From assembly GCA_048938005.1 (NCBI GenBank), contig JBHLMQ010000033.1, positions 1-35,187 of the forward strand: a stretch of DNA of 35,187 nucleotides, written 5' to 3'. This document shows, piece by piece, positions 1,344 to 35,187 of this stretch (its first letter is position 1; every line of letters begins with the position of its first letter). The translations under genes were made by a program, and so were the position numbers. Origin of the DNA: Promethearchaeota archaeon. GTDB taxonomy: Archaea; Asgardarchaeota; Lokiarchaeia; Sigyniarchaeales; SOKP01. The notes below the pieces were generated by a model. That model was given only the letters and a program-made list of their open reading frames with translations. It made no database searches and had not been told where the DNA came from.

Positions 1344-1414
1344 AAAAAATAATGTTAAAATCGTTTTATTAAGCAAAATTTTTTTTTCCATACTTTTTTT
1401 CCATATATAACATA

Positions 1415-2743
1415 ATGCAATTGTTTAAAAGGAAGGATAATAAAAAATTTGTACCAGAGGATCATAAGTTCACTTCAGATTTCAATTCAGTGATTTTTAT
1501 AGTGGTTTGGAATTCATTAGGCTTCTTTTTTATCGAATTCATAATGGCTTATTTAATTAAACAGGTTTTAAATTATCCTGCACCAAATCTCGGTTTATTT
1601 TTTTCATTTATTACTCTTGGAGGTTTAATTAGCTCATCTTTTATTGGATATTTAACTGATCGTTTTTCTAAGCGAATTTTAATTATGATAGGTTCTTTTG
1701 GCAGAGGTTTATCTTACTTTGGACTCTATATTTCAATAATGCTATATTCTTTAATAGGAATGTATATTAGTGCATTTCTATTAGGTCTGGGAGCATATAT
1801 TTTCTGGAATCCATTGGATTCTTTAATTTCTGAAAAATCTTCAAAATATTATCGATCTTCTGCTTTTGGAAAGAGAAGATTTGCCTTAGGCATCGGAATG
1901 GTGCTTGGAACAATAATAGGATTCACTATCTTTAGTATAGCGAATATTTTTACACCATTTAATGATTTTATAATATATGGTGCAATTCCAATATATGGTA
2001 TTGCTAATTTTTACGCAGGAATCCAATTCTCGCGAAAAGTGGATGAAACAATGAAATTTGAAAATCTCCATGATAATAAAAATCCAAATACTTTAATAGA
2101 ACAAGATTTCGAACTTTCTATTAAGCTATCTAGAACAGCACAAATGAAATTTTATTTTTTAGGTATTATTTTAATATTTGCGGGTTTATCTTTAAGTGCG
2201 ATTAATGTAGGGGTATATAGACCCTATATCCAACCCTACATTATTGAAAATATTAATAGTAATCCTTCTATAGTCTCTTGGTTTTATCTTCCAACATTTA
2301 TTATTGGATCTCTTATTGCCCCAAAATTAGGGACTATAGCAGATAAAACTAATCCACTTTTAGCCATCTCAGTTGCTAGTTTTCTAGGTGGAATTATCAC
2401 TTGGTTGATTATCAATTCGGGAAACTTAGCGATTTTTAGCTTTTTACTCGTATTAGATCAAACAATTATGTTAACAACAGGTTTTGTGATGGTAAATGTT
2501 CTGAGTCGTGTTTCAGTTAAACATCGCGGAAAAATCTTCGGATTAATTACTTTTCTTGAATCTATTGGAATGATTATAGGTCCTATTTTAGGCGGAATCA
2601 TATGGGAAAGTATAAGTCCACAAGCTCCCTTTATGATTTCAATTATTGTTGAGTGGTCTTTAATACCTTTTTTTGTTATAGGGATCCATATTATCAATCC
2701 TTATATTGTTGAATCTATAGACAATAAGAAAAATTTAATATAA
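1415..2743 (+). CDS. MFS transporter
   Basis: About 12 TM segments; motif A-like GYLTDRFSKR and GTIADKTNP; HRGKIFG...GPILGG in the C-terminal half. Confidence 0.9.
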   Translation: MQLFKRKDNKKFVPEDHKFTSDFNSVIFIVVWNSLGFFFIEFIMAYLIKQVLNYPAPNLGLFFSFITLGGLISSSFIGYLTDRFSKRILIMIGSFGRGLSYFGLYISIMLYSLIGMYISAFLLGLGAYIFWNPLDSLISEKSSKYYRSSAFGKRRFALGIGMVLGTIIGFTIFSIANIFTPFNDFIIYGAIPIYGIANFYAGIQFSRKVDETMKFENLHDNKNPNTLIEQDFELSIKLSRTAQMKFYFLGIILIFAGLSLSAINVGVYRPYIQPYIIENINSNPSIVSWFYLPTFIIGSLIAPKLGTIADKTNPLLAISVASFLGGIITWLIINSGNLAIFSFLLVLDQTIMLTTGFVMVNVLSRVSVKHRGKIFGLITFLESIGMIIGPILGGIIWESISPQAPFMISIIVEWSLIPFFVIGIHIINPYIVESIDNKKNLI

Positions 2744-8730: not shown

Positions 8731-9105
8731 ATGAATAATCTAGAAGTAAAGAATCTAAATAAGGAACTAGAACGATTAGAATATTTTGAAGATATTGTTG
8801 GTACAGCTATAGTAAATCGGAATGGGCTATTAATTTCTTCGAGATTACCCAGAAACATTGATGAAAGAAGATTTGGAGCAATGGCAGCTAGTTGTTATTT
8901 TGGAATAGAAACAGCAGCTTCAACTATTGGAGCAAGTGAAATTAATCATCTAACAGTTGAATTTAATGAATATCAGTTAATAATAATGGAAGCAGATGAA
9001 AATTTAATTTTAGTTTCATTAGTAGATTATAATGCTAATTTAGGTTTAATTTTTATTGAAATTGAAGAGAGTATAAAAAATATAAAACAAATATTAAATA
9101 GGTGA
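8731..9105 (+). CDS. Roadblock/LC7 domain protein
   Basis: IVGTAIVNRNGLLISS, FGAMAAS, LTVEF, ANLGLIF roadblock pattern; 124 aa. Confidence 0.9.
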   Translation: MNNLEVKNLNKELERLEYFEDIVGTAIVNRNGLLISSRLPRNIDERRFGAMAASCYFGIETAASTIGASEINHLTVEFNEYQLIIMEADENLILVSLVDYNANLGLIFIEIEESIKNIKQILNR

Positions 9106-9111
9106 TTTAAT

Positions 9112-9849
9112 ATTTTAACTGAAAAACAAAAGGAAAGATATTCAAGACAAATTATATCTCCTTTAATTGGAGAAGAAGGGCAAGAAAAACTTTCTAAAAT
9201 TAAAGTATTACAAATTGGAGCAGGAGGGTTAGGTTCACCTTTTGCATTATACCTCGCAGCCGCCGGAATAAACGAATTAACTATAATTGATAATGATGTA
9301 TTAGATATCACTAATTTGCAAAGACAAATTCTTTATAATGAAACTCAAATCGGAGAAGATAAGATTAAATCTGCAAAAGAAATATTATCAAAACTTAATT
9401 CAGATGTTCAGATTAACACTTATAAGGATTATGTTGATGAGAATTCCGTAAAGAAATATTTAAAGGAAACTAAATATGATTTTATAGTTGATTGTAGTGA
9501 TAATTTTAAAACAAAATTTTTAGTGAATAAAATTGCTGTAGAGAATAATTTACGATGTGTAATTGCTGGTATAAAGGACTTTTATGGTCAAATAATGACT
9601 ATTAACCCGAGAAACACTGCGTGCTATCAATGTGTCTTCTCCCCAATAGAAACTCCTCCTGATGAAGGCCCCTTACCTGTAATTGGGGTTACTCCCGGGA
9701 TTTTAGGAACATTAGAAGCTCTAGAAGTGATAAAAACAGTTTTAGGGCTACCTAACTTGGAAAATAAGGTTCTAATGGTTAATCTAATAGATTTAAGGTT
9801 TAATATTATAGAGATTGTAAAGAATGAAAAATGTATTTGCTCGATATAG
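9112..9849 (+). CDS. ThiF/MoeB/UbaA-family E1-like activating enzyme (probable ATT start)
   Basis: The frame is open from 9106. (M)LTEKQKERYSRQI..IGEEGQEKL...LQIGAGGLGSP..YLAAAG...IIDND...TNLQRQ lies upstream of the ORF-track TTG at 9316. Also DCSDNF, CYQC and a C-terminal CIC. Confidence 0.9.
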   Translation: MLTEKQKERYSRQIISPLIGEEGQEKLSKIKVLQIGAGGLGSPFALYLAAAGINELTIIDNDVLDITNLQRQILYNETQIGEDKIKSAKEILSKLNSDVQINTYKDYVDENSVKKYLKETKYDFIVDCSDNFKTKFLVNKIAVENNLRCVIAGIKDFYGQIMTINPRNTACYQCVFSPIETPPDEGPLPVIGVTPGILGTLEALEVIKTVLGLPNLENKVLMVNLIDLRFNIIEIVKNEKCICSI

Positions 9850-15050: not shown

Positions 15051-15305
15051 ATTACCCAATATAGATTTAGGCTAACCGGAGTCCCTCCAGATCAAGCGAT
15101 AAAGCTCATTGAGTTAGATCCAAACAATTCAATTGCAGAAATTAAAAAAACTGTGCAACGTGAATATAAATTAAACCCAATCTTAGCGATACAATTTATC
15201 TTTAAAGGTAAAGTCTTGCCTGATCAGTTAAAATTCGCAAAGATAGGAATTCATCCAAAAAAAGATGTCATTACGGTAATGGCTACGCAAGCAGGCGGAG
15301 TTTAA
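15051..15305 (+). CDS. Ubiquitin-like (beta-grasp) protein ending in GG-V (probable ATT start)
   Basis: Manual translation: (M)TQYRFRLTGVPPDQAIKLIELDPNNSIAEIKKTVQREYKLNPILAIQFIFKGKVLPDQLKFAKIGIHPKKDVITVMATQAGGV*. FIFKGKVLPD resembles ubiquitin LIFAGKQLED; diglycine near the C-terminus. An SD-like GGGTGTGA ends 6 nt before the ATT. Confidence 0.85.
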   Translation: MTQYRFRLTGVPPDQAIKLIELDPNNSIAEIKKTVQREYKLNPILAIQFIFKGKVLPDQLKFAKIGIHPKKDVITVMATQAGGV

Positions 15306-32857: not shown

Positions 32858-33274
32858 TCAAATTTCTTTTTCACAAAAACACGCTGAACTGTTAAAAATC
32901 TTTTCACCACATGGACATTGTTCTGGATGGTTATATTTTTCACAGATTCTTTGTATTGTTTCGCATGTAAAAAGTAAGCTAAATTTTTCACTTTCAACAT
33001 GGGCTTTGCTTGGATCAAGTGCTAATTCTTTATGTAATAGTAATTCGAGAAGCCTACTATGTCGATTCAATTCTTTTGCTAATTCAATACCATCTATAGT
33101 TAAAAATACTTCATGATATGGTTCATACTTGACTAAATTTTGTTTTTTTAGTCTTTTAATACAACTACCAAGAGTCGAATGAGGTATCTTTAAAGCTTTT
33201 TTTATTTCACCAATTTTCATTGAGTATGGTGATTTAAATAAAAATTTTATCACATGGTAATCTAAATCTACCAT
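32858..33274 (-). CDS. DtxR/MntR-family metal-dependent transcriptional regulator
   Basis: HTH...LV.YEPY..V.LT..G...A....R.H.RLLE; C-terminal HPEQCPCG. Confidence 0.88.
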   Translation of the reverse strand: MVDLDYHVIKFLFKSPYSMKIGEIKKALKIPHSTLGSCIKRLKKQNLVKYEPYHEVFLTIDGIELAKELNRHSRLLELLLHKELALDPSKAHVESEKFSLLFTCETIQRICEKYNHPEQCPCGEKIFNSSACFCEKEI

Positions 33275-33304: not shown

Positions 33305-34069
33305 TTAATGTTCATGCCCTCCAATTGCTAGTATAAATGCCATAATTACAATACCTAATACGACTAATATCAATTGTTTTATGATTTCTTTAGTGCCTGT
33401 TTTTTCATGTAATTGTGGAGTTAAATCTGATAATGCTATATAAATAAAACTAGCTGATGAGATTGCCAAAAATATTGGTATAAGAAAGTTTAAAATTCCA
33501 ATAATGTAATAACTAATAATGGCAGCAGGTATCGTAGATAAACTAGATATTAAATTATAGATAAATGCTTTTTTTTTTTGCATTCCACTATGAATAAGTA
33601 TACCAAAATCACCTGTCTCCTGAGGGATCTCATGAATTATTATTGTAATACTGACTGCAATACCAATATTGAAATCTGTAATAAAAGCAGTTGCAATAAG
33701 AATTCCATCTGTAAAATTATGAAAAGCATCTCCTACCAGAATTATTGGTACTGATGCTTGACTATGAACTTCACAACTATTATTTTGACAATTCCGCCAA
33801 ATTAAAACTTTTTCTAAGAAAAAGAAAAACAGAATACTTCCTAGTACAAAATACATAATTAAATGAGGTTCACCAGCAGAACTCTCGATTGCTTCAGGAA
33901 TTAAGCCTAAAAATGAAGCAGTAAGTAATGTTCCTGTTGCAAATGAAATTAATGCAGAAACTATAACTTTTTGTATACTTTCTTTAAAGAGAATGAATCC
34001 CGAAGCAGCAAATATAGCACCTACACTTCCTAGAGTTGCAAATAATATTATCCAAACTAAAATAGGAAT
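33305..34069 (-). CDS. ZIP-family metal (Zn/Fe) transporter (probable ATT start)
   Basis: GDAFHNFTDG and HEIPQETGDF signatures. The frame extends 71 codons upstream of the ORF-track ATG (33856) through (M)PILVWIILFATLGSVGA...ALISFATGTLLTASFLGLIPEA, which are the ZIP TM1-TM2 helices. Confidence 0.9.
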   Translation of the reverse strand: MPILVWIILFATLGSVGAIFAASGFILFKESIQKVIVSALISFATGTLLTASFLGLIPEAIESSAGEPHLIMYFVLGSILFFFFLEKVLIWRNCQNNSCEVHSQASVPIILVGDAFHNFTDGILIATAFITDFNIGIAVSITIIIHEIPQETGDFGILIHSGMQKKKAFIYNLISSLSTIPAAIISYYIIGILNFLIPIFLAISSASFIYIALSDLTPQLHEKTGTKEIIKQLILVVLGIVIMAFILAIGGHEH

Positions 34070-34093
34070 TTCTCACCTTTTAGTTTCTTTTCA

Positions 34094-34169
34094 AAATTTA
34101 CGAAGTATCGTAATTTATATAAATAAGATATTAGAAAAATATTTAAAATTTACGATCAATCGTAAATTT
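34094..34169. promoter_or_regulatory. Two tandem palindromic operators TTACGA-N4-TCGTAA upstream of the ZIP-DtxR operon
   Basis: Site A core at 34098-34113. Site B is AAATTTACGAT-CA-ATCGTAAATTT at 34146-34169, with perfect 11-bp arms. Confidence 0.7.
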
Positions 34170-34312
34170 AAATAATATTATTTCTGTTGAACTCACACTC
34201 TATAGGTTAGATTTTTTTAAGAGAACTTAATAATTAGAAAATCAATTAATGATCAAGTCTTATAAATAGATTTATAATCTATTTTAGAGGTTAATTCATC
34301 ATTAAAATACCA

Positions 34313-35187
34313 TTGACCTTTTCTTGTATAAATTGTGAAAAAAAGTTTGAATTTACTTCTATTCACCATAAATGTCCTAAATGTGAAGGATTATTGTGGA
34401 TTGAGCTTAATTTAAGCAAGCTTAAAGAATTCTCTAAAGTTGAAGAAGATGGTAAATTTTGGGATTATAAATTTGCTTTTCCTCAAATAAAGGATGATTT
34501 CATCATTTCATTAGGAGAAGGAGGAAGTCCATGTAGAAGCTCAAGAAAATTTGGAGAAAAATTAGGATTAAAATATTTATTTTTTAAGGACGAAACTGTA
34601 AATCCTACAAGTTCTTTTAAAGATCGTGCTGCTGCATTATTAACTTCACATGCAAGAAGTTGGGATTTTAAAAAAATAATATGTGCTTCAAATGGTAATC
34701 AAGGTGCCTCATTAGCAGCCTATACATCAGTTGAGGGGATGAACTGTTTGAATATTATTCCAAATCTAATTGATATTGGCAAAAAGGCTCAAATGATTGC
34801 TTATAACTCTGAATTACAAGTAATCGGAGATACAGTTGACGATGCAATTGCAGATATGATAATGCGTGGTAATATTAAGGATTTTTATCAAGGTACTCCC
34901 GATTTAAATCCACTTACTCTTGAAGCGCAAAAAACCATTGCTTATGAAATAATTAAACAGATTAAAGACCCAACTTGGATATTAATCCCTATGGGTAGTG
35001 GAGAATTATTAGTTAGTTTATGGAAAGGTTTTTATGAGCTTAAACAAGCTGAAATTACGAAGGAAATTCCTAAATTAGTTGGAATACAATCTCAGGTATT
35101 ATCTCCCATTGTAGATCAATTCTTAGAAAAAGAAACATTTAATATAAAGAATAAAAGACTATATAATTCACTTGCTTTAGGTATATT
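34313..35187 (+). CDS. thrC: Threonine synthase-like PLP enzyme (3' end runs off the window)
   Basis: Not in the ORF track. N-terminal CINC..CPKC zinc ribbon, SLGEGGSP, KDETVNPTSSFKDR (PLP lysine), ASNGNQGASLAAY, QKTIAYEI, PMGSGEL. Start is TTG 34313, or possibly ATT 34301 after GAGG. Confidence 0.9.
   Translation, partial: MTFSCINCEKKFEFTSIHHKCPKCEGLLWIELNLSKLKEFSKVEEDGKFWDYKFAFPQIKDDFIISLGEGGSPCRSSRKFGEKLGLKYLFFKDETVNPTSSFKDRAAALLTSHARSWDFKKIICASNGNQGASLAAYTSVEGMNCLNIIPNLIDIGKKAQMIAYNSELQVIGDTVDDAIADMIMRGNIKDFYQGTPDLNPLTLEAQKTIAYEIIKQIKDPTWILIPMGSGELLVSLWKGFYELKQAEITKEIPKLVGIQSQVLSPIVDQFLEKETFNIKNKRLYNSLALGI

Follow-up and report, generated by a model that had tools for sequence, protein, structure and literature searches.

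Shine-Dalgarno-led ATT, ATA and ATC start codons very probably serve a ZIP-family transporter gene and several per cent of the genes in a genus of Lokiarchaeia

The window analysed here is the stretch of 35,187 nucleotides formed by contig JBHLMQ010000033.1 (positions 1 to 35,187, forward strand) of a Promethearchaeota archaeon (assembly GCA_048938005.1; Asgardarchaeota, Lokiarchaeia, Sigyniarchaeales, SOKP01). Its minus strand encodes a ZIP-family metal transporter whose conserved N-terminal part is preceded by no ATG, GTG or TTG codon. We consider it very probable that this gene is intact and translated from an AUU codon, and that roughly 4-10% of the genes of the genus are started at ATT, ATA or ATC (together ATH; ATG, GTG and TTG are called canonical below) under the guidance of a Shine-Dalgarno (SD) sequence. 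The apparent users of ATH starts include an E1-like gene, a ubiquitin-family (Ubl) gene, the threonine synthase-like gene thrC, the genes of ribosomal proteins uL15 and uL16, and the gene of aIF1, a fidelity factor. At the corresponding positions, relatives from other families have for the most part retained ATG. The genome to which the window belongs (G000) is a draft of 3.72 Mb in 101 contigs, 95% complete, with 29.8% G+C.

Read on the minus strand, the start region of the transporter gene is AAAAGGTGA GAA ATT CCT ATT TTA GTT TGG. An earlier note on this DNA had described a frame closed by an in-frame TGA and followed by 71 codons without a canonical start, and the sequence confirms all of this. 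The TGA (34075-34073) lies within a GGTGA motif, the frame is closed by two further stops upstream of it (LRKF*KETKR*E), and the first ATG, GTG or TTG of the frame is ATG 33856, 71 codons past ATT 34069. Read-through of the TGA from an upstream start is ruled out by the two additional in-frame stops, which lie in an A+T-rich promoter. The ribosome-binding signal found upstream of 788 confident ATG starts of the genome is (A/G)GTGA at positions -11 to -7, that is, GTGA followed by six bases and ATG (spacing N6), and the GGTGA at 34077-34073 is therefore a genuine SD core. Since the 16S rRNA gene is absent from the G000 draft, the anti-SD sequence was taken from the 16S 3' ends of one genome of the same genus (G022) and one of the same order (G032), GGATCACCTCC.

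Two in-frame ATT codons follow the SD core, and the start is probably the second of them, ATT 34063, rather than ATT 34069. The closest relative (locus L035, 92% identity) has AAC in place of ATT 34069 and keeps only the second ATT. Furthermore, a spacing of nine bases (N9) is the second commonest among strict ATG sites of the genome, with 22 sites against 52 at N6 and 3 at N3. The start was set at ATT 34063 on these two grounds; of the earlier proposal, the non-canonical ATT stands, and its exact codon, 34069, is kept as the less likely alternative.

The product of the gene matches the Pfam family PF02535 with 119.4 bits (cut-off 35.1, E-value 2.5e-34) in two stretches. The metal-binding motifs in the central helices of ZIP transporters are HNxxDG and HExPxE, and the translation carries HNFTDG and HEIPQE (within HEIPQETGD). 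Residues 20-243 align weakly to residues 71-303 of BbZIP (PDB 5tsa, E-value 0.0065). The family match, the motifs and an alignment that begins at residue 20 suggest that the 69-71 codons before ATG 33856 encode part of the fold. The length of the canonical-free run is not itself evidence: where 3.5% of coding codons are canonical, 71 in a row without one would be met with a chance of about 0.08. The evidence lies in homology and conservation upstream of the first ATG.

The transporter sequence was searched against 40 related genomes and a public contig collection. This gave 40 rows, from which 3 exact duplicates were removed; 4 of the remaining 37 could not be anchored on a conserved Trp, leaving 33 loci. 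The codon three before this Trp is ATT in 16 loci, ATC in one, ATG in 14, TTG in one and another codon in one, and this last locus carries an ATG two codons further up. Between the upstream stop and the Trp, 15 of the 16 ATT loci are free of canonical starts, and the next canonical codon is scattered between 3 and 66 codons past it. The majority of the ATT loci read GTGA TAA AAA ATT, which is the optimal six-base spacing, and the frame is intact in all 16. The orthologs align from residue 3 of the protein, and this conservation at the protein level extends over more than 30 loci, including those that start with ATG.

In order to determine how common such starts are, we counted in G000 occurrences of GTGA-N5-7-X for every sense triplet X, keeping sites where X opens a frame of at least 100 codons that is closed within 10 codons on the upstream side, with no canonical start ahead of X and a distance of 10 codons or more to the next one. 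All three ATH codons are enriched, ATT at 23/1912 (Fisher p = 1.6e-11), ATA at 14/1453 (p = 1e-6) and ATC at 7/794 (p = 6e-4), which is 5-7 times the value for the 55 other sense triplets pooled (57/33963); the A/T-only triplets AAA, AAT, TAT, TTA and TTT together give 12/9373. The canonical codons reach 75/891 (ATG), 29/1020 (TTG) and 5/340 (GTG). The spacer profile peaks at N6 for canonical and ATH codons alike (ATG 52, TTG/GTG 23, ATH 34, the five A/T-only controls 5 together), indicating that ATH starts follow the canonical SD geometry. Control triplets show smaller bumps at N3 and N9, which stem from codons in frame with a nearby real start. Of the genes that have a GTGA-N6 site, about 30% would start at ATH.

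The 44 candidates with an SD and an ATH codon were compared with Pfam. A family was found above its cut-off for 25 of them and none for the other 19. The first canonical start falls after the beginning of the domain in 18 of the 25; in the other 7 the whole domain lies past this start, which is uninformative. The 18 include uL16 (ATC), a thiolase, a universal stress protein, two Ras-like GTPases, an FAH-family enzyme, an MFS transporter and a response regulator. uL15 is among the uninformative seven, yet its N-terminal sequence looks complete. As uL16 and uL15 both appear to use ATH codons, these starts do not seem to be confined to weakly expressed genes.

An unbiased sample was obtained by comparing 400 kb of the complete same-genus genome G006 with G000, which gave 254 ortholog pairs after removal of shadow open reading frames (ORFs). 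These pairs replace a first comparison of 347 pairs, which was inflated by conserved shadow ORFs (79/347). For 28 distinct G000 genes (29 pairs), the homologous stretch begins 10 or more codons ahead of the first canonical start. An ATH candidate lies near the start of the alignment in 19 of the 28, and 11 of these have an SD core. A rightly spaced GTGA precedes 9 of the 19 homology-defined candidates, compared with 13.5% of 920 reference ATG starts. On the G006 side, 8 of 32 long-leader cases are artefacts of masked N stretches. When 109 well-defined ATG starts of G006 are followed into G000, the corresponding codon is ATG in 87, TTG in 4, GTG in 1, ATT in 3, ATA in 3, ATC in 1 and another codon in 10; in the reverse direction, 105 starts correspond to ATG in 85, TTG in 4, GTG in 1, ATA in 1 and another codon in 14. 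The distance from the stop to the first canonical codon is 30 codons or more in 3.5% of the 2955 cleaned ORFs and 50 or more in 1.5%, where intergenic stop and start frequencies predict about 2% and 0.15%. A codon log-odds score for leaders was abandoned, as it separated coding from non-coding sequence poorly; a count made before cleaning (232 of 3215 ORFs with at least 30 canonical-free codons) overstated the excess.

Some 30% of ATH starts would have a canonical codon within a distance of 10 codons, and these tests would miss them. With this correction, we estimate that approximately 4-10% of G000 genes start at ATT, ATA or ATC. The suggestion that SD-guided AUU initiation is frequent in this genome is thus borne out by the enrichment, by its optimum at N6 and by the excess of GTGA before homology-defined candidates, with the refinement that ATA and ATC are used too.

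When start-like codons behind GTGA were sought in the window, ATT came up at three sites (9112, 15051 and 34069/34063) where the frame is closed one or two codons earlier and then runs for a long way without a canonical codon. The first belongs to an E1-like gene of the ThiF family, in which the Pfam domain spans residues 10-241 and the first canonical start lies 68 codons in, beyond the GxGxxG motif. In same-genus orthologs with their N-terminus on the contig the start is ATT in 15, ATC in 5 and ATA in 1 (21 of 21 ATH), and in seven loci from other families an ATG stands exactly at the start in six and two codons downstream in one. The second site belongs to the Ubl gene, where the Pfam ubiquitin domain spans residues 17-80 and 34 codons pass before the next canonical start; here 20 same-genus loci have ATT 16 times, ATA once and ATG three times, and other families have ATG at or within one codon of the start in 10 of 10 loci. 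The upstream neighbour of the E1-like gene encodes a Roadblock/LC7 protein, and its stop is the TGA within the GGTGA of the E1-like gene. This arrangement (window 9101-9114) would suit translational coupling.

The earlier note had named these two genes, and had put forward thrC as a further instance. All three hold in the related genomes. ATT 34301 of thrC aligns with ATG in G016, with ATT in G015, G006 and G022 and with ATC in G012; the nearest canonical start, counted from the upstream stop, is 115 (G015), 159 (G006) and 35 (G022) codons away, and TTG 34313 of the window is not conserved. Counting the transporter, four of the roughly 36 genes in the window thus start at ATT. That standard gene callers truncate such genes, as had also been predicted, is seen in public protein collections, which contain the 183-residue stump of the transporter (exact) and a 50-residue stump of Ubl. 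Gene finders limited to ATG, GTG and TTG would cut short or overlook several per cent of the genes of this lineage, among them Ubl and E1-like genes that are studied as eukaryotic signatures, and would thereby carry N-terminal errors into domain inventories, structure predictions and expression constructs of these Asgard proteins.

SD-led initiation at near-cognate codons is a known mechanism. In Escherichia coli, infC and pcnB have SD-led AUU starts, infC being a fidelity factor's own gene, and NCBI translation table 11 lists ATT, ATC and ATA as rare starts. The proposed starts resemble these cases in that a near-cognate AUH codon is set by SD pairing and would be read by the initiator tRNA, and, as with infC, a fidelity factor's own gene (here aIF1) is concerned. 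They differ in scale: isolated genes are concerned in bacteria, and here several per cent of the genes, ribosomal protein genes among them, of an archaeon with aIF1 and aIF2. Mitochondria frequently start at AUU, AUA and AUC, on leaderless mRNAs and with a modified tRNA-Met. Non-AUG starts of mammalian mitochondria are mentioned in the abstract of one paper (PMC11775629). The frequent AUH starts of an A+T-rich genome are shared with mitochondria, whereas SD-led starts in a free-living archaeon are not. Two reviews of archaeal initiation (PMC4705826, PMC6237735) give, in their accessible portions, AUG, GUG and UUG as the only archaeal starts and do not mention routine AUU, AUA or AUC. The genus agrees with the archaea treated in those portions in its SD-led mRNAs and in having aIF1 as the rejecting factor, and differs from them in its routine ATH starts. 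Full-text literature searches, which did not extend to subscription journals and supplements, gave no report of AUU, AUA or AUC as start codons in any archaeon, Asgard or other. What appears to be new is the scale, the occurrence in an archaeon with eukaryote-type factors and the conserved use on aIF1.

The aIF1 gene of G000 has no canonical start in the first 54 of its 107 codons. Its start region reads AAGGTTGTGA TAA GAG AGC ATT AAA GAC GAC GAA ATT TGT CCT, and 22 of 22 same-genus orthologs that could be read share the ATT at the start (the copy in G006 is masked by N); the first canonical codon of these genes falls between codons 23 and 88. The Ile codon five past the start ATT varies synonymously in 5 of the 22. 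In seven loci from other families the start is ATA (2), GTG (2) or TTG (3), and never ATG. The solved aIF1 of Methanocaldococcus jannaschii aligns from two residues ahead of the EICP motif, so that the ATT start gives a normal N-terminus. A comparison of aIF1 proteins across families revealed no obvious genus-specific change. Two genomes of the genus (G024 and G007) contain a second, more divergent aIF1-like match (63% and 61% identity), and one of these copies has two in-frame TAA codons.

Ivanov and co-workers reportedly described in 2010 an autoregulation of eIF1 through a poor start context. The archaeal case would be similar in that a weak start stands on the fidelity factor's own mRNA, so that a low level of the factor would raise its own synthesis, and it differs in that the weak feature is the codon AUU itself, as in infC, rather than its context. 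According to the two reviews, aIF1 is the factor that rejects non-canonical start codons (PMC6237735, PMC4705826), and in a system of Sulfolobus solfataricus components it keeps an AUU model mRNA from being bound (PMC4705826). Since aIF1 rejects AUU, an AUU-started aIF1 gene invites a self-limiting loop of the infC or eIF1 type, and the ATT start suggests infC-like self-limitation. By analogy with these systems, one may envisage such a loop, a role for the dosage of aIF1 and a causal link to ATH use across the genome. The genus might in this way have reset its start stringency: an AUU-locked aIF1 would be kept low by infC-like feedback, SD-led AUU, AUA and AUC would then work, and ATG would have drifted to ATH in hundreds of genes, including those of ribosomal proteins and eukaryote-signature genes. 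We put this forward tentatively, as a possibility that we would not yet expect to prove correct.

A simpler account would be neutral decay, in which ATG is lost under A+T mutation pressure and the initiation machinery and its regulation are unchanged. The low G+C content of the genome, the fact that ATG becomes ATA or ATT by a single G-to-A or G-to-T change and the similarity of aIF1 proteins across families are all consistent with it. However, G032, a closed genome from another family of the same order with 31% G+C, shows no excess of ATH in the 1.2 Mb sampled (at N6: ATG 26, TTG/GTG 7, ATH 2, controls 6; Fisher test against G000, p = 0.0016), so that A+T pressure alone is insufficient. The invariance of the aIF1 start, next to an Ile codon that varies synonymously, and the use of ATT and ATC by highly expressed ribosomal protein genes also speak against neutral decay, which we regard as unlikely. 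Together with the ATG found at E1-like and Ubl starts in other families, the result for G032 suggests that the expansion of ATH starts is specific to the genus or family. The samples taken from G006 (0.4 Mb) and G030 (0.8 Mb) were not large enough for the SD test, and G032 and G000 are too divergent for a comparison of N-termini (3 and 6 of 153 pairs). One G032 frame (c330) has its first canonical start 65 codons in and homology from codon 12, and reads AAGG TGA CTA AAA CTG; its G000 homologue starts with TTG, and c330 may use CTG or another near-cognate start.

In the proposed course of initiation on the transporter gene, the mRNA would be leadered, its GGUGA would pair with the 3' end of 16S rRNA (…GAUCACCUCC) and set the small subunit over AUU, and the ordinary initiator Met-tRNA (anticodon CAU) would take AUU despite the mismatch at the third position. 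The protein would begin with Met and retain its first two membrane helices. We infer both the decoding by this tRNA (Met-tRNAi) and the identity of the N-terminal residue. The initiator tRNA, like aIF1, had been singled out in the earlier note as a place to look, and the gene found on contig C41 is canonical, with A1:U72, three G-C pairs next to the loop and the anticodon CAU. ARAGORN detected 9 tRNAs in G000 without intron search and 16 with it. Two tRNA-Met(CAT) genes contain introns of 32 and 65 bases, and tRNAs of this lineage are hard to detect.

ATH codons could instead depend on a second initiator tRNA dedicated to them, or on a changed decoding centre, and not on mispairing of Met-tRNAi. 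The use of all three Ile codons and their high frequency would be unusual for simple mispairing, and an extra tRNA could be missed in a set so incompletely detected. Nevertheless, one canonical CAU initiator is present, none with an Ile anticodon and initiator features was found among the detected tRNAs (a very incomplete set), and ATG and ATT swap freely in orthologs, as expected if one tRNA reads both. In our judgment a second initiator is very improbable, and mispairing of the ordinary initiator is preferred.

For the transporter itself, gene callers place the start at ATG 33856, which would give a product of 183 residues behind an untranslated leader of 69-71 codons that is open by chance. 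This prediction is represented in public collections, and the 71-codon canonical-free run has a chance near 0.08 if coding. The upstream codons are, however, conserved as protein from residue 3, in part in loci that start with ATG at that very place; ATG 33856 is not conserved as a start, the first canonical codon being scattered in the ATT orthologs; and no SD precedes it. The stump would be without the first two ZIP membrane helices, and the alignment with 5tsa begins at residue 20. Since ATG and ATT swap at one homologous codon across independent assemblies, a downstream start is very unlikely, and we give it hardly any credence. Least credible of all is that the ATT arose through faulty assembly or sequencing, or through a mutation that recently inactivated an ATG, and that the gene is a pseudogene or misassembled. 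A metagenome-assembled draft in many contigs leaves room for this, but the same swap across independent assemblies excludes it, with ATT or ATC at 17 of the 33 non-duplicate loci and ATG at 14, an intact frame in all 16 ATT loci and the same pattern in the E1-like, Ubl, thrC and aIF1 genes; the earlier note had called three independent sequencing errors unlikely.

Several points weigh against initiation at AUU in the transporter gene and at ATH codons in the genus. G000 has an estimated contamination of 7%, and related genomes are kin and hence non-independent samples. The spacing between SD and start in the window's transporter gene is N9 or N3 and not the optimal N6, and we infer its N-terminus. 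The Pfam comparison covered the 44 candidates alone, without a control set, and no ATH candidate stands at 9 of the 28 long leaders defined by homology. In a position-weight-matrix test the enrichment was weak to modest (at the median ATG score, 13.6% of sites pass for ATT and 12.9% for ATA, against 7-9% for the A/T-only controls), and the range of 4-10% depends on the method and on ad hoc filters. 

ATH starts combined with an AUU-started aIF1 offer a concrete case of how start-codon stringency is set and how it evolves between bacterial-style and eukaryotic systems. If the proposed reset of stringency is true, initiation fidelity would have been put to a natural experiment in this genus, among the archaea most closely related to eukaryotes. 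The features discussed are listed in Table 1.

Table 1. Coordinates of the features discussed. Positions without a contig name refer to the window; the others refer to contigs of the same draft genome (G000).
Feature	Position	Strand	Remarks
ZIP-family metal transporter gene, re-annotated	33305..34063	-	252 codons + stop, start ATT 34063
Stop codon of the transporter gene	33305-33307	-	frame open as far as here
Favoured start ATT of the transporter gene	34061..34063	-	9 bases past GTGA
Alternative start ATT (earlier note)	34067..34069	-	in frame, 3 bases past GTGA
SD core GGTGA of the transporter gene	34073..34077	-	contains in-frame stop TGA 34075-34073
First canonical start ATG of the transporter frame	33854..33856	-	gene callers start here, giving a stump of 183 residues
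Palindrome TTACGA-N4-TCGTAA, candidate operator	34098..34113	.	between TATA-like box and SD
TATA-box-like TTTATATAAA	34114..34123	-	about 50 bases upstream of the transporter start; putative function, assigned from sequence
Second palindrome TTACGA-N4-TCGTAA	34150..34165	.	upstream of TATA-like box
DtxR-type metal-dependent repressor gene	32858..33274	-	ATG start; Pfam Fe_dep_repr_C 54.4 bits
E1-like (ThiF family) gene	9112..9849	+	start ATT 9112, GGTGA (9101-9105)-N6-ATT
Ubiquitin-family (Ubl) gene	15051..15305	+	84 codons; start ATT 15051 after GGTGTGA-N6
thrC (threonine synthase-like) gene	34301..35187	+	probable start ATT 34301; continues past window end
aIF1 (SUI1 family) gene, locus L072	contig C41:33715-34038	-	orthologs L073-L101
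Ribosomal protein uL16 (L10e) gene	contig C29, offset 5580	-	GGTGA-N6-ATC
Ribosomal protein uL15 gene	contig C97, offset 104265	-	GGTGA-N6-ATT
Paralogous TGA-containing frames	contig C86, script offsets 19101 and 20371	-	open at TGA

The promoter region of the transporter gene contains a TATA-like box about 50 bases upstream of the start, which would imply a leadered mRNA and makes a leaderless one unlikely. The palindrome TTACGA-N4-TCGTAA occurs in only two copies in the 3.72-Mb genome, and both flank this box; similar palindromes are found upstream of orthologs of the transporter gene. The DtxR-type gene begins 30 bases downstream of the transporter stop, and its product is probably the operon partner of the transporter and the binder of the palindromes, which would then act as operators. 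The simplest reading of this arrangement would be a self-repressed, metal-regulated operon of two genes, in which the transporter is translated from a weak codon. A bacterial promoter scan of the region remained at chance level; its model is bacterial and irrelevant to an archaeon. The transporter resembles those of the ZupT/BbZIP type in its PF02535 match, its two motifs and its weak alignment to 5tsa, and differs from them in its short form of 252 residues, in being encoded with a DtxR-type repressor and in the palindromic candidate operators of its promoter.

The long leaders without an ATH candidate include those of window 1373-2743 (plus strand), of a frame of 1377 codons on contig C101 and of genes on contigs C11, C72, C89 and C96. 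Apart from the TGA-containing pair on contig C86, other near-cognate starts, conserved non-coding DNA or frameshifts are possible causes. The pair, which accounts for two of the nine, consists of paralogous frames of 324-326 codons, in which an in-frame TGA and the DNA upstream of it are conserved in both G000 and G006. A tRNA-Sec (TCA) is present in G000, and the two paralogs are probably selenoprotein genes read through UGA rather than genes with ATH starts.

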